A DNA stretch of 7,214 nt, taken from a virus. Taxonomy: Duplodnaviria > Heunggongvirae > Uroviricota > Caudoviricetes. The stretch lies in IMG/VR virus record IMGVR_UViG_2695420427_000010; one strand, written 5' to 3'. A program made the position numbers and the translations under genes. Under the pieces are notes generated by a model. That model saw only the letters and a list, made by a program, of their open reading frames with translations. It searched no databases and was not told where the DNA came from. This document shows, piece after piece, positions 1 through 7,214 of the stretch (position 1 is its first letter; each line of letters begins with the position of its first letter).

Positions 1-229
1 GCGGCGCTGGGCAACGACCCGAATTTTGCGACCACCATGACTAACGCGCTTGCGGGTAAGCAACCGAAAGATGCCACCCTGACGGCGCTGGCCGGACTTA
101 CTACTGCGGCAGGCAAGTTTCCGTATTTTACGGGGAATGATGTCGCCAGCCTGGCAACCCTGACAAAAGTCGGGCGGGATATTCTTGCGAAATCGACCGT
201 TGCCGCCGTTATCGAATACCTCGGTTTAC
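1..229. repeat. Inverted repeat copy 1 of the 3' end of the stf constant region, paired with 4236..4464
   Basis: Direct comparison: the reverse complement of 1..229 equals 4236..4464 except for one mismatch (204 C versus the equivalent of T at 4261, synonymous). Identity stops at 229/4236, inside the variable-side half of the crossover site. Confidence 0.9.
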
Positions 230-1122
230 AGGAAACGGTAAACAAGGCTGGTAACGCCGTTCAGCGTTCCGGCGATAAAATGACCGGAGAACTGAAAATT
301 GGCACGGTGAATGCGCTGCGAATTTTCAATGATACCTTCGGTCTAATTTTCCGTCGTTCAGAAGATTTTCTTCATTTCATTCCGACGGCTGAAGGACAAG
401 GCGAAAACGGTAATATCGGCCCATTAAGGCCATTCGCTATAAATCTGAGAACAGGTGCTATATCTGTCAGCCACGGGGCCAAAATTAAAGGAGGTCTAGC
501 TATTGGAGCTACTGATAACGCACTGGGTGAAAACTCCATTGTTCTGGGAGATAACGACACCGGATTTAGGCAAGATGGAGATGGTATTATTAGCTTCTAT
601 TCAAATGGTTCGCGCATCGGACATATTGATGAGTTAGGATTACATCTTTATAAAGATATTGAATCTAATGGCAGCAATTTTAGATTAAAAAGTAATTACC
701 GCCACCACATTACATTCGCCAACGAAGACGGAAGAATTCGTATGTTTTTGTGGAAAGATAACGGTGGTGATGGTGTTCATATTAATAACGGTTCAGATGG
801 TGGTGGTGATTTCATTTTTAAAACAGATGGGGGATTTGCGCTGGGAAGTGGTGCGCAAGTTGCGTCTAGTGGCGATATTTATGGTTCAGTGTGGGAAAAC
901 AACTGGTTAAGCACATGGCTGCATAATCATGTCGTTCGGGATATTCGTCTTGGCAGCATTGAATATAAAAACGTATGGCGCGACTACGGCTTTGGCGATG
1001 CGTCAGGTTATGTTTTAACAGCCGCAATTAACAGCAATGCGGATGATATTGTCGACACTGTTGCCAGAAGGCCAATTCAGAAATTGATTGGGGGAATATG
1101 GTACAACGTGGGGAGTGTTTAA
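1..1122 (+). CDS. stf: Side tail fibre protein, 3' portion: end of constant region (1..229) plus variable tip cassette C1 (230..1119). Partial, the reading frame is open from position 1 and the gene continues upstream of the window.
   Basis: Frame 1 is open from nt 1. The first 76 codons match the constant-region segment of the minus-strand stf ORF ([12 protein letters not shown]...AVIEYLGL). The downstream cassette carries tail-fibre-like motifs ([23 protein letters not shown]) and ends with TAA at 1120-1122, 1 nt before the tfa start. Confidence 0.85.
209..234. other. Site B, gix/pix/hix-like 26-bp inversion crossover site (12-bp half-site, 2-bp core, 12-bp half-site) at the stf constant/variable junction
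   Basis: TTATCGAATACC-TC-GGTTTACAGGAA. From memory, the Mu gix site is TTATCCAAAACC-TC-GGTTTACAGGAA; the right half matches exactly and the left half has 2 mismatches. The position at a tail-fibre constant/variable boundary is the classical one. Confidence 0.75.
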
Positions 1123-1123
1123 G

Positions 1124-1651
1124 ATGATGCACCTGAAAAATATTAAGGCCGGGAATCCGAAAACACCGGAACAATACCAGCTAACTAAAAAAGCGGGCGT
1201 GGTATGGCTCTTTTGCGAAGATGGCAAAAACTGGTATGAGGAACAAAAGAATTTTCAGCCAGACACCATAAAAATTGCTTACGATGAGAACAACATCATC
1301 GTTGCTGTCAGTAAAGACGTTTCAACTATTAATCCTGAAGGGCTAAGCATAGTTGAAGTTCCTGATATTACGGCAAATCGTCACGCAGACAATAACGGAA
1401 AATGGATGTTTCTGGATGGTAAAGTAGTAAAGAGGGAATATACAGAACAGGAACTGCAACAACAGGCCGAATCACAAAAGGCCGCATTGCTTTCCGAAGC
1501 TGAATCAGTCATCCAGCCGCTGGAACGCGCTGTCAGGCTGAATATGGCGACGGACGAGGAACGCACACGACTGGAAGCATGGGAACGCTACAGTGTTCTG
1601 GTCAGCCGTGTGGATACGGCAAATCCTGAATGGCCACAAAAGCCTGAATAA
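1124..1651 (+). CDS. tfa: Tail fibre assembly protein (Tfa chaperone) for cassette C1
   Basis: Product begins [21 protein letters not shown], the conserved Tfa N-terminus of lambda Tfa / Mu U type. GGGGAG ribosome-binding site 8 nt upstream. Starts 1 nt after the stf stop. Confidence 0.85.
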
Positions 1652-1656
1652 AAATT

Positions 1657-1676
1657 AAGGCCCGATAGCGGGCCTT
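1657..1676. terminator. Candidate bidirectional intrinsic terminator between the convergent tfa genes
   Basis: Perfect 8-bp stem AAGGCCCG / CGGGCCTT with a 4-nt loop in the 28-bp gap between the Tfa1 stop (1649-1651) and the Tfa2 stop (1680-1682). The minus-strand transcript has a T-rich run after the stem; the plus-strand tail is weaker. Confidence 0.5.
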
Positions 1677-1679
1677 CTC

Positions 1680-2213
1680 TCATTCTGGTTGTTCGGGAAA
1701 CGTTACTGGCAGGCTGGAGGTGTCTGTGGATTCAACCTTCTGCGCATAGAGCATCCACTCGGTTAATTTTTGTTTATTCTCATCGGAAATGATGCCCAGC
1801 TGTAGCTGAGAGTCCCACAGCTGGGTTTTATCCCTGACGAGCTGCAGCAGGCTCTGCTTTTCATTTTCCGCTTGTTGCCTTTGCTCTTCCTCGGTATAAG
1901 TTCGCTTTATCACCGCACCATCTTTGAACATCCAGTTGCCCGAAATATCAGCCCGGCGATTTGCTGTAATATCAGGCAACTCAACGACACTTAAACCTTC
2001 TGGATTAATTGCTGATACATCCTTGTCTATAGCAATAATTATTCCCTCAACTGTGTAAGCCAGTTTTATTGTATCCTCCTGAAAGTTTTTTAATTCCTCA
2101 TGCCAATTTTTTCCATCTTCGGACCATAACCAGATAACATCAAAATTCTTTGTTAGCTGGTATTGTTCAACGGTTTTTGGATTACCTGCGACAATGTTTT
2201 TTAAATGCTGCAT
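1680..2213 (-). CDS. tfa: Tail fibre assembly protein (Tfa chaperone) for cassette C2
   Basis: Product begins [21 protein letters not shown] and is a paralogue of Tfa1 with a divergent C-terminal half. AGGT ribosome-binding site. Convergent with Tfa1. Confidence 0.85.
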
Positions 2214-2215
2214 GA

Positions 2216-3142
2216 TTATACCTGCGATACGTTATACCATGTTCCGTTAATTAACTTTTGTATTGGTCTGAATACTGCCGGATCATCACCATCGACTTCA
2301 CCGATAATACCAAGCCCCGTGATTACATGGCCTGATTTTTCATACATCACGCCTTTCTTCATGGTCTAAACAACTCGTGTGCCAAGTCTGACATCTCTCA
2401 CATAGCGGGAATCAAAGTTACCGTAATCCGAGGGATTAACACGTCCCGTAATATTTATGGTTTTATTACTTTGAATGCTTCCGGAGACAAAGCGCATAAC
2501 ATGGACGTTATTAGCATAAACATCCAGATTACCATCGCCTTTTTGTTTAAAGCCCGTGTCATTATCACCCAATACAATCGAATTACCGCCAAGAGCACTG
2601 GATGTTCCGATACCCAGTGCACCATTCAGTTGACCACCAGATAACGGCAGTGCACCAACATCTCCTGCTGAAGGTTTTCTGGTGGTGTAAAATTCGGACC
2701 AGTCGGCTTCAAAACCATAACCATCACGGGCTGAACGATAAAAAATACCGCCATTTTTATAATTAATCCGAAACTGAGCTGCAGGACAACTTCCTTCTCC
2801 CATATAAAAATGAATAATTAACGTTGATGCACCACTAATAGTTGCGTTATAGGCTCCGCTACTCCAGTTCCATCCAACTGCTTTATCATTCGCAACGGTG
2901 CTTCCTGTTTTCCCTAAGGCAAACGCACCAACATGACTTGCTTTTAATGTGATATCGGAGGAACCATCAAAAGCCACATTGCTTATTTTCCTGGCAGTTT
3001 TTAATTTTGCAGCTGTAGAAGCATTGCCGGATAGTTCACCAGAAAGGCCACCGCTGAATGTTTGTCGATTAGTCCAGGTATTCGCTGTACTGAGTAACGG
3101 TATTTTCTCCCCGCTTGTGCCGAGTTCTCGTAAACCGAGGTT
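2216..3142 (-). pseudogene. Alternative tail-fibre tip cassette C2 with no start codon of its own (would be expressed only when fused at site C), interrupted by a single in-frame amber codon at 2366-2368
   Basis: The frame is open from the codon after the site-C stop (3142) down to TAG at 2366-2368, then continues in the same frame for 49 codons (T, then MKKGVMYEKSGHV...[17 protein letters not shown]) to TAA at 2216-2218. The post-amber tail aligns with the last residues of cassette C1 ([18 protein letters not shown]), and VRDVRLG before the amber aligns with VRDIRLG in C1. Confidence 0.7.
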
Positions 3143-3150
3143 TTAGATAA
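3125..3150. other. Site C, gix/pix-like 26-bp crossover site immediately upstream of the invertase gene (gixR-equivalent position)
   Basis: TTCTCGTAAACC-GA-GGTTTTAGATAA, a near match to the recalled gix sequence TTCCTGTAAACCGAGGTTTTGGATAA. The reading frame through the site is the same as through site B, so recombination gives an in-frame const-C2 fusion. Confidence 0.75.
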
Positions 3151-3204
3151 TGGCGGTTTCTGGCCTGCATGGCATGATTTGTGCTTTTGGACGGGAGATT
3201 CAGC

Positions 3205-3531
3205 GTGCTGATTGGCTATGTAAGGGTATCAACAAATGACCAGAATACAGACCTGCAACGAAACGCTCTTGTTTGTGCAGGATATGAACAAATATTTGAA
3301 GATAAATTAAGCGGAACAAGGACAGGCCGACCTGGATTAAAACGTGCTTTAAAGCGCCTTCAAAAAGGTGACGCACTGGTTGTCTGAAAACTGGACTGAC
3401 TGGGTCACTGTATGCGGCATCTTGTCGTGCTGGTGGTGGAAGCCTAGAAAAAGTATCGGGTGTTGCTGAACCGTGTTGATACATCAACTGCACCTGATAT
3501 TGAGTGGCCTACGAACCCTGTCAGGGAGTAA
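3205..3531 (+). pseudogene. pin: Serine DNA invertase of the Pin/Gin/Hin/Cin family, inactivated: 60 N-terminal codons intact, then multiple stops and frame decay, 3' end missing
   Basis: GTG at 3205 with a GGGAG ribosome-binding site gives MLIGYVRVSTNDQNTDLQRNALVCAGYEQIFEDKLSGTRTGRPGLKRALKRLQKGDALVV, the recalled Pin/Gin N-terminus. TGA at 3385-3387 sits where the family has Trp (VVWKLDRLGRS); further stops follow at 3397-3399, 3445-3447 and 3529-3531. An intact gene of about 185 codons would run to about 3770, which is occupied by the convergent methyltransferase coding sequence. Confidence 0.8.
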
Positions 3532-3545
3532 TCATTGGGATTATG

Positions 3546-3578
3546 CCGCAGCACGTCTTAAGCAAGAACGTGCTGCGG
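3546..3578 (+). terminator. Strong hairpin between the invertase remnant and the stop codon of the stf-methyltransferase fusion; possible plus-strand terminator
   Basis: Perfect 11-bp stem CCGCAGCACGT / ACGTGCTGCGG with an 11-nt loop. On the plus strand it is followed by TTGGATGCTATTTTTT, an interrupted T-tract. There is no T-tract on the minus strand. Confidence 0.35.
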
Positions 3579-3585
3579 TTGGATG

Positions 3586-6099
3586 CTATTTTTTCCCTGA
3601 AGCGGAAAACATTACTACAGTACCTTGAACCCTGGTTTTAACATTCTCGAAATGCTCTGAGAGTATATGTGTTAAGCCTTCTTCGGAATCTTTTGTGTTT
3701 GAAAAGATGCCTTTCTGATTGTAAATGCGCATCAGTTTTTGACCGAAGCTATTGTGCACAACTCCATCGCCAAGAATTGTGGCTCCGTATAGAGTTCCAT
3801 CGTCAGTTAAGGCCTGCGCCGCATTGCGTATTACACAGCTTTTTGTAGATATATTTCCAGGCAGGCAGTGAAGAAGGTAAAACATGGAAATGGAATCAAA
3901 TTGACCATGTAACGCCGCGGGATAAGGTTCAAAAACATCATGGCTAATTTTATGTTTAATTTTTGATTCCCCAGCCCTTGTAGATGCCGCGTTCAGGCTA
4001 GCTTCGTTCAAATCCATTAAAGATATCAGACTACTCTCAGGTACGTGAGTAAGGTAAAACCCAGTTCCAACACCAATATCCAGATGGTTGTTACCTAAAT
4101 GTTCCAGAAAGTGTGGAAGAAGGTGTTCCTTTGTAGGACATCCCCATGCAAGCCGATTTGATACTCCCAAAACCCACCAGTCATAAAGCTTTAGGGTAAG
4201 TGGTGTGTAAATTTTAGCCCCATCATCTGTGTTTAGTAAACCGAGGTATTCGATAACGGCAGCAACGGTCGATTTCGCAAGAATATCCCGCCCGACTTTT
4301 GTCAGGGTTGCCAGGCTGGCGACATCATTCCCCGTAAAATACGGAAACTTGCCTGCCGCAGTAGTAAGTCCGGCCAGCGCCGTCAGGGTGGCATCTTTCG
4401 GTTGCTTACCCGCAAGCGCGTTAGTCATGGTGGTCGCAAAATTCGGGTCGTTGCCCAGCGCCGCAGCCAGCTCGTTCAGCGTGTTCAGTGCATCAGGTGA
4501 CGAATCTACAAGGGCGGCAATCGCAGCCATAACGAAAGCCGTGCTTGCGATTTGGGTATTATTCGTTCCCTGTCGCGCAGTTGGTGTTGTTGGCGTTCCG
4601 GTCAGTGCAGGACTATTTAAGGGCGCTTTCTTGTTCGTTTCACCCATTACCGCCTTAACCGCTTTTGGCGTTGCCGCCAGTGACTCGGAAGTGCTGTTGG
4701 TCGCACTGCTGAGCTGTACTATCCCCTTTTTCGTCGTGCTCGCATCCTCCAGCGCCACGGCGGATGCAATATCCTCTGCCCGTTTTGCTGCTGTCTCGGC
4801 GCGCGTTGCCGCGGATTCAGCAGCAACTTTGCTCTGAGATGCAGCCGTCGCACTGCCTGCCGCCTCTGATGCTTTCGTTGTTGCTGTCGTGGCACTACCT
4901 TTCGCTGCTGACGCTTGTCTGGTCGCCTCATCTTTTGAAGCAGACGCAGATGATGCCGATGACGCCGCTGAACTGGCTGACGATGCGGCTGCTGCCTTAG
5001 AGGAAGCAGCATTGTCTGCTGAAGTCTTTGCATTTGTTTCAGAGGTTTTTGCTGCAGAAGCAGACCTCGCTGCTGCAGTGGCTTGCTCAGTGGCTTTGCC
5101 AGCCTTCGTTGTGGCTGTTGAAGCGGATGATGCGGCGCTTTCTGCCGATTTTCCGGCGGCGGTGGCACTGGCTGAGGCCTGCCCGGCACTTGTTGACGCG
5201 GCACTGGCAGATAATGCAGCCGCTGTTTTTGAACCTGCCGCAGCTGAGGCGCTCTGTCCCGCTGCTGTTTCAGAAGACTTAGCGTTCGTCTCGGACGTTT
5301 TTGCCGCCTTCGCGGAATTTCCTGCCGCCGTTGCCGAGGAAGCTGCACTACTGGCACTTGATGATGCATTCGTTTCTGAAGATTTCGCTGCCTCTTTTGA
5401 GGCCGCCGCACCCCGTGCCGAGGTGGCAGCTTCTGACGCCTTCGTGGTCGCTGTGGATGCAGAAGTGGCTGCCGATTTTTGTGATGCTGCGGCATTCGTT
5501 TCTGACGTTTTCGCGGCACTGGCGCTGGTAGCTGCCGCGCTTTTTGATGACTCTGCAGCAGCACTTTTTGCTGCTTCACGGGCCTTTGTCGATGCCGTTC
5601 CTGCGCTGGAAGACGCTGACTGAGCCGACGACGCGGCCTGTCCGGCTGACGTGCTGGCGGCACGTGCTGAGGCTGCAGCATCGGTTGCATGAGTTGCCGC
5701 CTCGCTGGCTGATTTTTTCGCGGCTGCCGTATTCTGTGCAACCGCGGAGGCGTTACGTGACACCTCTTCCACCATCTGCTCAAAGCGGCGCAGTGCCTCC
5801 GGTCGGACATCATCCTCCGTCATGGCACCGAGAAAATCATTCAGCGTACCTGGTCTGGAACCTTCATAGACGGTAATGGTCCCGGCATGTGAAGGCGGAA
5901 AACCTTCAACCAGCAGGGTGACGCTGTACTGACCATGCTCAACATCCATGCTGTAACGTCCGGCTTCATCCGGATTTTCAGAGGCCACCGTGTTCACCAC
6001 CATCGTGCTGCTGGTTCGTCTGGCCTTCAGCACAATGGTGCAGTTCTGTACTGGTTTTCCTGTGCCATCTTTAAGCACGCCAGAAATTTTTACTGTCAT
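3586..6099 (-). CDS. stf: Side tail fibre protein Stf (lambda-like N-terminal and central constant region, 4237..6099) fused in frame at crossover site A to a C-terminal SAM-dependent methyltransferase-like domain
   Basis: 837-codon ORF with a GGTGGA ribosome-binding site. The N-terminus MTVKISGVLKDGTGKPVQNCTI...GFPPSHAGTITVYE is recognisably the lambda Stf N-terminus. A long Ala/Ser/Thr-rich repetitive shaft follows. The constant region ends ...AVIEYLGL at the site, then LNTDDGAKIY... runs into the methyltransferase motifs. Confidence 0.85.
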   Translation of the reverse strand: MTVKISGVLKDGTGKPVQNCTIVLKARRTSSTMVVNTVASENPDEAGRYSMDVEHGQYSVTLLVEGFPPSHAGTITVYEGSRPGTLNDFLGAMTEDDVRPEALRRFEQMVEEVSRNASAVAQNTAAAKKSASEAATHATDAAASARAASTSAGQAASSAQSASSSAGTASTKAREAAKSAAAESSKSAAATSASAAKTSETNAAASQKSAATSASTATTKASEAATSARGAAASKEAAKSSETNASSSASSAASSATAAGNSAKAAKTSETNAKSSETAAGQSASAAAGSKTAAALSASAASTSAGQASASATAAGKSAESAASSASTATTKAGKATEQATAAARSASAAKTSETNAKTSADNAASSKAAAASSASSAASSASSASASKDEATRQASAAKGSATTATTKASEAAGSATAASQSKVAAESAATRAETAAKRAEDIASAVALEDASTTKKGIVQLSSATNSTSESLAATPKAVKAVMGETNKKAPLNSPALTGTPTTPTARQGTNNTQIASTAFVMAAIAALVDSSPDALNTLNELAAALGNDPNFATTMTNALAGKQPKDATLTALAGLTTAAGKFPYFTGNDVASLATLTKVGRDILAKSTVAAVIEYLGLLNTDDGAKIYTPLTLKLYDWWVLGVSNRLAWGCPTKEHLLPHFLEHLGNNHLDIGVGTGFYLTHVPESSLISLMDLNEASLNAASTRAGESKIKHKISHDVFEPYPAALHGQFDSISMFYLLHCLPGNISTKSCVIRNAAQALTDDGTLYGATILGDGVVHNSFGQKLMRIYNQKGIFSNTKDSEEGLTHILSEHFENVKTRVQGTVVMFSASGKK
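3589..4236 (-). other. Class I (Rossmann-fold) SAM-dependent methyltransferase-like domain forming the C-terminus of the stf ORF
   Basis: Motif I HLDIGVGTGFY (about 4050..4080); an acidic post-I residue in LMDLNEASL; DVFEPYP and FDSISMFYLLHCLP resemble motifs II/III. No DPPY/NPPY motif and no PCQ motif, so it does not look like a DNA methyltransferase. No Met between the junction and motif I. Confidence 0.6.
4231..4256. other. Site A, gix/pix-like crossover site at the junction of the stf constant region and the methyltransferase domain
   Basis: GTTTAGTAAACC-GA-GGTATTCGATAA. The constant-side half-site is identical to that of site B (TTATCGAATACC on the coding strand) and the core is the same. 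The variable-side half keeps the inner GTAAACC but differs in the outer 5 positions. Confidence 0.7.
4236..4464. repeat. Inverted repeat copy 2 (3' end of the stf constant region on the minus strand), paired with 1..229
   Basis: See copy 1: 228/229 identity to the reverse complement of 1..229. Confidence 0.9.
4735..5770 (-). repeat. Low-complexity, internally repetitive Ala/Ser/Thr-rich shaft-coding region of stf (approximate bounds)
   Basis: Translation shows reiterated KTSETNA / SASAA / TATTKASEAA units. The GC-rich codon repetition produces long open frames on both strands (track ORFs 4719..5813 minus, 4889..5623 plus and others). Confidence 0.5.
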
Positions 6100-6100
6100 A

Positions 6101-6136
6101 CTTTTCCACCAATAAAAAAAGCCCGCAGCAGTGACG
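6101..6136 (-). terminator. Intrinsic terminator downstream of lom, immediately upstream of the stf ribosome-binding site
   Basis: Minus-strand RNA: stem AAGCCCG / CGGGCTT (7 bp, 14-nt loop) followed by TTTTTTTTAT, then GGTGGA and the stf ATG. Confidence 0.6.
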
Positions 6137-6250
6137 CCACGGGCTTCAGGACAGTGTAACTTTACGTTTCCTCAAACGCAGTTCACCCCATAAGGTGGAT
6201 GAACCTGCGTATCATAACAATATTTACAGAAGATAAATCGGCGTCTGTTG

Positions 6251-6850
6251 TCAGATACGGTATCCGATACCAACAATAAATGCATCCGTTCGCCAGTCAC
6301 CACTACCGGAACCTTCATAAGCAAGGTCAATGGTCACGGATTCGGTCGGGTTAAACTGCACGCCAGCCCCCCACGCCAGAGACGTGTTGCTGTGGCGACC
6401 GTCATCACTTCCGGTCAGCACGTCGTGCGTTTTCCCCTTGTTGTCAGTTACGCGGAGATAATCCCCGGAGAAAGTCGACACACGGCTGTAAGCCACGCCT
6501 GCCATCGCATACGCGCTGAACCATTCATTCACGCGTACAGACGGCCCCGCCATCACGCTGAACCAGCGGTTACGCACGGAATCTTCATGCCAGCGGGTAT
6601 CGCTGTAGTGCGTTTTTTGCTCATCCTCAGCATTGGCATAACTGAAGGACGTAATCAGCCCCAGCGCGTCCGTAAACTCATAACGGTATTTCACGTTAAT
6701 CCCGTTCAGATTATCGCTGCCGGGAGCGTTCGTACGGGCATGAAGATACCCCGCGCTCAGTGTGGACTGATGTTCAGACGCCCATGCAGGCGCACCGGAT
6801 ACGGACAGACAGATGGCTGCGGACAAAATGGCTGCACAAACTTTACGCAT
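6251..6850 (-). CDS. lom: Lom outer-membrane protein (Ail/OmpX/PagC family beta-barrel)
   Basis: 199-codon ORF with a signal-peptide-like N-terminus (MRKVCAAILSAAICLSVSGAPAWA) and a C-terminal aromatic residue. The sequence is recognisably lambda Lom, and its position between J and stf matches lambda. GAGAGG ribosome-binding site. Confidence 0.9.
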   Translation of the reverse strand: MRKVCAAILSAAICLSVSGAPAWASEHQSTLSAGYLHARTNAPGSDNLNGINVKYRYEFTDALGLITSFSYANAEDEQKTHYSDTRWHEDSVRNRWFSVMAGPSVRVNEWFSAYAMAGVAYSRVSTFSGDYLRVTDNKGKTHDVLTGSDDGRHSNTSLAWGAGVQFNPTESVTIDLAYEGSGSGDWRTDAFIVGIGYRI

Positions 6851-6871
6851 AATTACCTCTCGCTTTTCTGC

Positions 6872-6898
6872 AATAAAAAAGGCGCCATTTCTGGCGCC
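6872..6898 (-). terminator. Intrinsic terminator between J and lom
   Basis: Minus-strand RNA: stem GGCGCCA / TGGCGCC with a 4-nt loop followed by TTTTTTATT. Confidence 0.6.
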
Positions 6899-6917
6899 CG
6901 TATATGGGTTATAAAAT

Positions 6918-7214
6918 TCAGCTGATACTGATGCCTGCGGTGGCTTTCTTCATCACCACAACCAGCAAATCGCTGATACTTGCTGTGGGATACCAGTCAT
7001 TTACCAGCCATGATGACACCGAAAACTCCAGCGTCATGTGGCCGCGACCAGCTGGCATATCAATAACACCACTGTAAATCAGCGTATTATCCAGCGCGGT
7101 ACGGTTATAAATTTCAGCACCGTTTTTCCGTACTATCAGGCGGCATGACGAATAAATATCGTTATTCTCCCGCTCATGTTTAGCGCCGCTGAATGCCACC
7201 GCCGGAATAACAAT
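6918..7214 (-). CDS. J: Tail tip host-specificity protein J, C-terminal end (partial, continues beyond the window end)
   Basis: The ORF is open to the window edge and ends 68 nt upstream of lom, separated by a terminator. Synteny J-lom-stf is that of lambda. Assignment rests mainly on position and recalled similarity of the C-terminus; not verified. Confidence 0.65.

Follow-up and report, generated by a model that had tools for sequence, protein, structure and literature searches.

Among the closest described relatives of the locus studied here are the invertible fiber systems of the Gin/Pin/Cin/Hin type, represented by Mu G, P1 C, and e14 P. Each pairs a constant fiber part with two alternative C-terminal cassettes, each accompanied by a tfa gene, and has 26-bp inverted crossover sites and an adjoining serine-recombinase gene. 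Serine invertases cut at the central dinucleotide, and either orientation of the segment occurs among isolates. For e14, chimeric Stf proteins made by an invertase and endowed with a new function have been documented (StfE2; PMC12529663).

The window, by which we mean the whole 7,214-nt stretch of DNA that was analyzed, follows the same plan (Table 1). Two 26-bp inverted crossover sites flank alternative fiber C-termini with their tfa genes, and the constant part belongs to a lambda-Stf-type fiber whose N-terminal domain matches PF08400 with E = 3e-69. Both segment orientations occur among Shigella sonnei isolates: the complete genomes L006 and L008 have one, and the window and the draft contigs L012 and L017 have the opposite, with the exchange at the site center. 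Unlike in Mu G, P1 C, and e14 P, the local invertase is a 68-codon remnant, with no intact serine invertase adjacent to the segment; the same truncated remnant also occurs in E. coli prophages. Inversion would therefore need an enzyme in trans, one candidate being, for example, the 195-aa recombinase of a P2-like prophage in L004 and L007. A further difference is that the fiber constant region is joined to a methyltransferase sequence in a way that is not a crossover product. An ORF scan of the minus strand finds 837 open codons from 6099 to 3586, the tail-fiber portion of which ends at residue 621 (EYLGL).

Table 1. Features of the 7,214-nt window
Feature	Position	Strand	Remarks
Second copy of tail-fiber 3' end	1-229	+	Left end of contig X; reverse complement of 4236-4464
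Gin/Pin-type crossover site A (TTATCGAATACCTCGGTTTACAGGAA)	209-234	+	24/24 to local consensus
Invertible segment	235-3124	.	Holds Sv, tfa, tfa', Sv'
Sv	235-1122	+	Inside invertible segment
tfa	1088-1651	+	Inside invertible segment
tfa'	1680-2213	-	Inside invertible segment
Sv'	2216-3124	-	Split by stop at 2363-2365
Crossover site B (TTCTCGTAAACCGAGGTTTTAGATAA)	3125-3150	+	24/24 to local consensus
Truncated serine invertase (68 codons)	3181-3387	+	N-terminal part of Resolvase domain (PF00239) only
Class I SAM-dependent methyltransferase body (PHROG 2132 family)	3589-4234	-	Stop codon 3586-3588
Placeholder base	4235	.	'A' in window, 'N' in CXDV01000178.1; one-N scaffold gap between two contigs
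Lambda-Stf-type side tail fiber, constant part (621 codons, PF08400 N-terminal domain)	4236-6099	-	End of contig Y
lom (Ail/Lom outer-membrane protein)	6251-6850	-	Contig Y
Tail tip gene J, 3' end	6918-7214	-	Contig Y

A sequence-only reading of the window had proposed that the methyltransferase can be made only as a fusion to about 620 residues of tail fiber. No fusion is encoded. By sequence comparison, the public record CXDV01000178.1 (assembly GCA_001260535.1) corresponds to the whole window, and after reverse complementation the two differ solely at position 4235, which is N in the record and 'A' in the window. The record was identified by a look-up of the exact Lom protein. This base agrees with neither parent sequence, and the junction codon CTA (Leu 622) becomes CNA, or X, in the record. 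Given the N, the window consists of two contigs, 1-4234 (contig X) and 4236-7214 (contig Y), joined by a scaffolder. The apparent fiber-methyltransferase fusion is an ORF read over a one-N scaffold gap and not a real gene. We put the probability that a two-contig scaffold, and not a continuous stretch of genome, is the best account of the window at about 0.93. On the fiber side the join reads GTAAACCGAGG (GTAAACCGAGGTATTCG) and continues into the tail-fiber constant region. On the methyltransferase side contig X ends ...CATCTGTGTTT, and the natural continuation past this end is T/GTTTTCATT(A/G)ATTTCACCAT, the natural methyltransferase 5' end being TTTTCATT(A/G)ATTTCACCAT.

Related S. sonnei loci show where the two contigs belong. 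We compared the complete genomes L006 and L008, the N-free draft contigs L012 and L017, and the scaffold GCA_900159025.1 (L009). The prophage order in related assemblies is J, lom, stf, invertible segment, truncated invertase, methyltransferase, and both contigs map onto it. Contig X is colinear with 11636-15866 of L012 and 12387-16620 of L017, and contig Y is the reverse complement of 8886-11864 and 9637-12615, respectively; in these loci the two stretches share 229 nt, and the second contig is turned around. Neither L012 nor L017 has an N, and both carry a 222-aa methyltransferase with its own start and a fiber of 917-918 aa that is contiguous with its C-terminal part. In the scaffold, this receptor-binding part is not contiguous with the fiber and lies on contig X as Sv. 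The normal layout was found in all complete S. sonnei genomes sampled (L006 and L008) and in both N-free drafts. Window positions 3130-4234 agree at 100% with the region of S. sonnei CP044151 that holds the free-standing gene, and 4236-6421 match L006 and L012, and L009 from 4378, with zero mismatches. Single-N joins in the S. sonnei scaffolds L007 and L009 link segments that are not adjacent in N-free loci; at this locus, such joins are unreliable. The odd joins of L007 were considered as further rearrangements and dropped, as each has a single N.

Contig X runs from the end of the fiber constant region through the Sv/tfa/tfa'/Sv' segment and the truncated invertase into the methyltransferase, up to its 4th or 8th codon. 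Contig Y holds J, lom, and the fiber constant region and ends at the branch point of the two alternative cassettes. The fiber-side break lies 7 nt past the crossover center, at the very point where the TTCCT cassette parts from the TTCTC cassette; we take this as the place where a de Bruijn contig should end. On our best account, Y precedes X in the genome via the common 229 nt. The scaffolder instead put Y, reverse-complemented, after X with a single N, which was converted to 'A' during preparation of the window. The frame is kept across the N by chance, giving the apparent 837-aa fiber-methyltransferase ORF. For the end point of contig X and the flip of Y, we can only infer a reason. The flip probably came from read pairs of cells with the opposite segment orientation, which would place the fiber constant region beside the Sv' end of contig X with a negative gap estimate.

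Two observations sit less comfortably with a scaffold gap. First, the 229-nt copies differ at one base (204 versus 4261), which is unexpected for a single locus, yet explicable if the near-identical fiber end of the P2-like prophage supplied reads. Second, L009, another S. sonnei assembly, encodes an N-free fiber-methyltransferase hybrid (P0190) with matching topology and equal relative orientation, so the adjacency could exist in some cells. If the scaffold link were right, a true inversion or fold-back would have put the start-less methyltransferase beside the fiber constant region with a tiny gap, as a chimeric ORF or near-fusion. The P0190 junction is 390 nt shorter than that of the window and has 3-nt microhomology; an in-frame deletion of 390 nt could have produced it out of a join like that of the window. 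Inversion of the segment does occur in S. sonnei, so the region is recombinationally active. Nevertheless, we regard a correct scaffold link as very improbable: the join is an N, and L006, L008, L012, and L017 all show the normal layout. A simple inversion would also leave a methyltransferase 5' fragment beside Sv, where an intact crossover site and a second fiber end were found instead. The natural methyltransferase 5' end offers no secondary crossover site (best 14/24), and the break is off the central dinucleotide. Slightly less probable still is that some S. sonnei cells carry a fold-back or inversion-type rearrangement at the fiber crossover site, with the methyltransferase in frame behind the shaft and P0190 as a deletion derivative. 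Were that adjacency true, the locus would be a recurrent rearrangement hot spot yielding fiber-enzyme chimeras.

Several routes to the join were examined and rejected. A canonical invertase crossover at the junction fails because the break is 7-8 nt off the central dinucleotide. Recombination at a quasi-site in the methyltransferase 5' end was discarded since the best score, 14/24, is background, reached by about 230 windows in 16 kb; the hybrid site at 4231-4256 scores 21/24. A supposed third natural cassette, with half-site GTTTAGTAAACC (match H89), is an ordinary TTCTC cassette whose extra bases are a chance BLAST extension. In a simple inversion between the fiber site and the methyltransferase gene, the expected place of the 5' fragment is occupied by the intact site and the second fiber end. 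Template-switch, fold-back, and tandem-inversion-duplication models were a paper exercise, all made needless by the N at 4235.

With two contigs as the preferred account, the missing start of the methyltransferase has an ordinary explanation. The sequence-only reading had noted the lack of any ATG or GTG from the junction to motif I, with the first Met coming later, and this is true of the window as supplied. On the minus strand, motif I (LDIGVGTG) occupies residues 673-680 of the 837-codon ORF, with no in-frame ATG or GTG between it and the junction, and the first Met past the fiber part is residue 695. The methyltransferase has no start in the window because contig X stops short of it; L012, L017, L006, and L001 all have the start. 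Homologue N-termini follow the pattern M-x3-T-x2-GAK(I/V)YTPL, and comparing them, as had been suggested, gives the number of missing codons: 3 from the family-consensus start (218-aa form) or 7 from the RefSeq start (222-aa form) lie beyond the contig end. The window thus spans codon 4 or codon 8, respectively, to the last codon, and the 3-7 residues lost are non-conserved, the domain being otherwise complete. An earlier suggestion was that a free-standing ancestral gene may have lost its first codons to recombination. The gene is indeed free-standing and its first codons are absent here, but what cuts it short is the end of contig X, not recombination, and the fiber contig was attached there through a scaffolder's N. 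Nor is a separated 5' fragment to be sought left of position 1, as had been advised: the record extends no further than the window, whose left end is the second copy of the tail-fiber 3' end.

The sole start-like codon in frame in this interval is a TTG, found at residue 644 (window 4170). Together with promoter-like hexamers over the join (4240-4211, minus strand), one match of which crosses it, this codon might allow the methyltransferase to be expressed alone. We find this hardly credible. The number of promoter-like matches is what chance would give (2 versus 1.6 expected), and the hexamers draw on both sides of the N gap. The nearest Shine-Dalgarno (SD)-like run, GGTGGG, is only ~2 nt upstream of the TTG, and the product would be without seven invariant family residues, Y10 to V22.

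The sequence-only reading also favored a non-DNA, small-molecule-type methyltransferase, and here profile, model, and fold evidence agree with it. The protein matches Pfam Methyltransf_12 (37.7 bits, cut-off 30) and PHROG 2132 (E = 8e-157, profile positions 1-218), and it aligns with family members along their whole length. It carries motif I, rich in glycine (D-x-G-x-G-x-G), as well as the conserved acidic residue that follows strand 2, and D53, G55, G57, G59, and D75 are invariant in an alignment of 48 homologues. An AlphaFold2 model has a mean pLDDT of 93.1 and a pTM of 0.90. All 50 PDB matches listed by Foldseek are SAM-dependent methyltransferases or methyltransferase-fold entries, the best being juvenile-hormone-acid, phosphatidylethanolamine, phosphoethanolamine, and natural-product methyltransferases; none of the 50 is a DNA methyltransferase. 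The absence of DPPY/NPPY and PCQ, on which the class had been argued, was borne out by a motif scan: the ORF contains no [DNS]PP[YFW] or PC[QK] motif, and its single ENV has no PC to go with it. Neither Pfam nor NCBIfam gave a DNA-methyltransferase match, and PADLOC gave a marginal match (E = 0.0026) and no defense-system membership. Sequence and model together predict a class I Rossmann-fold SAM methyltransferase of the small-molecule, non-DNA type.

Among solved structures, juvenile-hormone-acid methyltransferase (7ec0), bacterial phosphatidylethanolamine N-methyltransferase (8ys9), Plasmodium phosphoethanolamine methyltransferase (3uj7), and UbiG (4kdr) share with it a Rossmann-type fold and an N-terminal helical cap (Foldseek E 1e-11 to 1e-9, TM-scores 0.57-0.67). 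Small-molecule and lipid methyltransferases of solved structure match weakly in sequence, with E about 1e-3. Identity to the four is only 12-21%, a likeness of fold that implies neither family-level membership nor substrate. We found no literature on the PHROG 2132 methyltransferase family. In Salmonella and Erwinia, distant homologues stand alone on the chromosome, and no operon is conserved around them.

Elsewhere, in S. sonnei relatives, E. coli genomes, and lambdoid phages, the methyltransferase gene stands alone, has its own start, and encodes 218-222 aa. At least 80% of a query that spans the gene (window positions 3380-4300) is present in 3,115 of 5,426 complete E. coli genomes, the listed matches ending at window 4234, and the full-length protein occurs in 14 sequenced lambdoid phage records, including ev243 and 2G7b. 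The lambdoid-prophage protein WP_000239881.1 (PHROG 2132) is 98-100% identical over all 215 retained residues. Its gene has a like context, with the truncated invertase, tfa fragments, and the end of the tail-fiber region, and an equal relative strand. Compared with it, the window is without the first 3 codons (MKK/MKT) or 7 codons (MVK(L/S)MK(K/T)), the SD sequence, and the promoter, all of which fall past the end of the contig. The methyltransferase is an ordinary accessory gene in the non-essential region of lambdoid phages and prophages, transcribed from its own start in the direction opposite to the late operon.

A very improbable reading takes the ORF for an evolved, functional architecture, either a methyltransferase carried on the tip of the tail-fiber shaft or a 'cassette' that would be the third switchable one of the invertible system. 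In its favor, the frame is open throughout, the domain is whole save for 3-7 non-conserved residues, the hybrid site 4231-4256 keeps 21/24, and StfE2 of e14 offers a precedent for a chimeric Stf with a new function (PMC12529663). The N at the join refutes this idea in practice. The domain also shows zero divergence from the free-standing gene, and the ORF is without the receptor-binding C-terminus of the fiber, normally found ahead of tfa. No fusion with such a junction occurs among the 120 best fiber or the 120 best methyltransferase homologues. The former contain no methyltransferase domain; the latter are 130-286 aa long and include a single fiber hybrid, P0190, which is without motif I. 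We found the junction in none of 5,426 complete E. coli genomes, nor in plasmids, phages, or viral, genome, and metagenome contig collections, and neither junction nor fusion in a 5.8-billion protein set. The exact-match junction queries used the 'A' version and are unable to match the N-containing CXDV01000178.1.

These results carry a caution. One N shown as 'A' turned a scaffold gap into a seemingly continuous in-frame ORF with an exotic domain architecture. In windows from draft scaffolds, N positions need to be kept or flagged, and junction-type findings need comparison with the source record. The biology beneath is ordinary: a lambdoid prophage with a Gin/Pin-type invertible fiber segment and a widespread accessory methyltransferase. 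As in the StfE2 and StfP2 chimeras of e14 (PinQ/PinE; PMC12529663), a fiber constant part from a cryptic prophage meets a new C-terminus at a site used by a recombinase. However, those chimeras are real and reversible products of canonical sites in which fiber is joined to fiber, whereas the join in the window is a scaffold gap and its partner an unrelated enzyme gene.

As supplied, the window carries an 837-codon reading frame in which the constant part of a side tail fibre runs directly into a methyltransferase domain. From the junction (residue 621/622) to motif I, LDIGVGTG at residue 673, the frame contains no ATG or GTG, and the first methionine of the methyltransferase part is residue 695; on both points the sequence-only reading is literally true of this DNA. 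The lone in-frame TTG (residue 644, window 4170) has an SD-like run only ~2 nt 5' of it, and a start there would lose seven residues that are invariant in the homologue alignment.

Features of the window
Feature	Position	Strand	Remarks
Apparent fibre-methyltransferase ORF	6099-3586	minus	837 codons
Constant part (Sc), lambda-Stf-type side tail fibre	ORF residues 1-621	minus	PF08400, E = 3e-69
Class I SAM-methyltransferase domain	ORF residues 622-837	minus	Methyltransf_12, 37.7 bits (cut-off 30 bits)
lom	6251-6850	minus	followed by end of J, same strand
Gin/Pin-type invertible fibre segment region	1-3387	plus
3' end (229 nt) of a fibre constant region	1-229	plus	frame open to left window edge
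26-bp crossover site	209-234	plus
Sv and tfa, then tfa' and Sv'	between the two crossover sites		tfa' and Sv' on opposite strand; Sv, Sv', alternative C-terminal cassettes
Second crossover site	3125-3150	plus
Serine invertase remnant	after second site, within 1-3387	plus	68 codons

Through the exact Lom protein of the window we matched record CXDV01000178.1 (7,214 nt, assembly GCA_001260535.1). Its reverse complement equals the window except at one position, 4235, which is N in the record and A in the window; the gene caller's product on the record has 353 aa and reads ...EYLGLXNTDDGAK.... This N in an otherwise identical record shows the window to be a scaffold made of two contigs, X (1-4234) and Y (4236-7214). 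In two N-free drafts of close relatives, L012 and L017, contig X is colinear with 11636-15866 and 12387-16620, respectively, and contig Y is the reverse complement of 8886-11864 and 9637-12615. The X and Y ranges share 229 nt, the common fibre 3' end. Both relatives encode an Sc-Sv fibre of 917/918 aa, and in both the methyltransferase has 222 aa and a start codon of its own.

The proper place of contig Y is ahead of contig X; the scaffolder put it behind X, flipped. The start-less, fibre-fused methyltransferase is thus no real feature, and the apparent fusion is a reading across a gap placeholder. The claim that the domain can be made only as a tail-fibre fusion falls with the N in the source record and the free-standing gene in L012 and L017. 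What remains is an accessory methyltransferase gene of the usual prophage kind, annotated before and cut short by a contig end. Swapping N for A in window preparation can yield false continuous ORFs across scaffold gaps.

The methyltransferase is one of a large family whose members are free-standing proteins. Of the 5,426 complete E. coli genomes searched, 3,115 contain 80% or more of a gene-spanning query (window 3380-4300). Identity among the listed matches goes up to 99.6%; they carry the annotation "class I SAM-dependent methyltransferase", and they stop at window 4234. In ETEC H10407 and NCTC86 the gene lies at a lambdoid prophage end. The invertible fibre segment and the truncated invertase seen here precede it, and the late genes are on the other strand. 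The full-length protein also occurs in 14 phage-collection records, including 2G7b and ev243, which has the gene between its fibre genes and int. The RefSeq protein (222 aa) begins MVKLMKKNTDDGAKIYTPL. PHROG 2132, annotated as function unknown, matches with E = 8e-157; its profile and 48 aligned homologues (from Escherichia, Salmonella, Citrobacter, Enterobacter, Klebsiella, Yersinia, Erwinia and others) start at the second methionine, M-x3-T-x2-GAK(I/V)YTPL. With these starts known, the window lacks 3 codons of the 218-aa form or 7 of the annotated one; judged from the alignment, nothing is missing from the conserved core. An ancestral free-standing gene short of its first codons had been proposed, and that much stands; the cause is the contig end rather than recombination.

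The anatomy of the junction was examined base by base. Identity to the natural gene runs through CATCTGTGTTT, ending at 4234. Base 4235 differs from both parents and is followed by GTAAACCGAGG, the inner part of a crossover site plus the fibre gene. The fibre-side break falls 7 nt past the central dinucleotide, at the exact point where the TTCCT and TTCTC cassettes diverge. Serine invertases cut at the central dinucleotide, not at the position of this break. A secondary crossover site in the natural methyltransferase 5' end was rejected, the best candidate scoring 14/24, a value reached at hundreds of positions in 16 kb. A simple inversion was likewise rejected: it would leave a methyltransferase 5' fragment beside Sv, where the window instead has an intact site together with a second fibre end. 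No such fragment occurs anywhere in the window.

The junction turned up neither in the 5,426 E. coli genomes nor among plasmids, phages or contigs from viral, genome and metagenome collections, and no fusion protein with it appeared among the best matches from a 5.8-billion protein set. Among the best matches, every one of the closest fibre proteins comes from Shigella sonnei. In two complete genomes of this species the order is J, lom, Sc-Sv', tfa', tfa, Sv, truncated invertase, free-standing methyltransferase, and window 3130-4234 is 100% identical to the methyltransferase region of a complete S. sonnei genome. Single-N joins between segments that are not adjacent in N-free loci recur in the S. 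sonnei drafts L007 and L009.

That the scaffold link reflects a true adjacency seems very improbable to us. It would have a parallel in P0190, a 223-aa protein of L009 (assembly GCA_900159025.1) that is an N-free in-frame hybrid of fibre constant region into methyltransferase, with the topology of the window. Its junction (L009 10249-10270, between DATLTA and ASTRAG, with 3-nt microhomology GCG) lies 390 nt "earlier" than the window's, and the hybrid has no motif I. Gap closing may have produced P0190, or it may reflect a genuine rearrangement at minority level.

A misplaced contig Y also has a probable origin. The fibre segment (window 235-3124) is found in either orientation in S. sonnei assemblies (the complete genomes L006/L008 versus the window and the drafts L012/L017), with exchange at the centres of the 26-bp sites. 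Only a 68-codon remnant of the adjacent invertase is left, which implies an enzyme acting in trans; a P2-like prophage of the same species encodes a full 195-aa invertase (drafts L004, L007). Read pairs from Sc-Sv' cells would tie the Sv' end of contig X to the fibre constant region, in the direction seen in the scaffold, and would give a negative gap estimate. SSPACE-type scaffolders insert a single n when the gap estimate is negative. The flipped placement of Y is probably an effect of such mixed segment orientations.

Window 1-229 is the reverse complement of 4236-4464 with 1 mismatch, 204 versus 4261, 26 nt from the crossover centre, and this mismatch leaves some doubt over the two-contig reading. 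The left-copy variant (204) is the allele adjoining both lambdoid and P2-like fibre genes in the draft L003, which suggests that the difference came from the P2-like prophage's near-identical fibre end, via reads or exchange. Over its final ~365 nt, the lambdoid fibre constant region shows 100% identity to a P2-like gpH-equivalent fibre gene of E. coli S14. In L003, L004 and L007, this constant region is assembled straight onto a P2-like prophage's invertible segment, invertase or baseplate genes, links that may be inter-prophage exchange or repeat-induced misassembly.

Other variation was seen along the locus. Degenerate ~33-nt repeats at 4876-5517, irregularly spaced by 84-150 nt, code for KTSETNA-type, Ala/Ser-rich shaft repeats in the constant part of the fibre and produce spurious long ORFs on both strands (e.g., 4889-5623 plus, 244 aa). 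Sv' (2216-3124, minus) is interrupted by a stop at 2363-2365, leaving its conserved C-terminal end as a separate 48-codon ORF (2216-2362); reference S. sonnei genomes share this split (875-aa fibre and 48-aa ORF). Relative to L012, Sv has a 3-nt insertion at 798-800, an extra codon in a glycine-rich DNGGDG... stretch, also found in L017 (918-aa versus 917-aa fibre). Fibre gene 4236-6421 has 0 mismatches to L006, L009 (from 4378) and L012, and one, at 4261, to L003. Seven substitutions against L003, L006, L009 and L012 cluster at 6422-6501 and 6998-7013 (lom, J 3' end); most are common to L017, L018 and L019, which suggests a small mosaic patch.

As for the type of enzyme, neither DPPY/NPPY-type nor PCQ motifs occur in the methyltransferase part, as had been noticed from the sequence. 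NCBIfam and PADLOC searches gave no significant match for it, and the distant Salmonella/Erwinia homologues are stand-alone chromosomal genes with no conserved operon around them. An AlphaFold2 model on the family alignment scored pLDDT 93.1 and pTM 0.90, and no DNA methyltransferase was among its 50 listed PDB fold matches. The motif absence, the fold matches and the PDB sequence matches agree with the earlier assignment to a non-DNA, small-molecule or protein type and point to a predicted small-molecule-type methyltransferase rather than a DNA methyltransferase. The best fold matches are juvenile-hormone-acid, bacterial phosphatidylethanolamine, phosphoethanolamine and natural-product O/C/N-methyltransferases, consistent with the sequence-level matches to UbiG and JHAMT (E ~1e-3).
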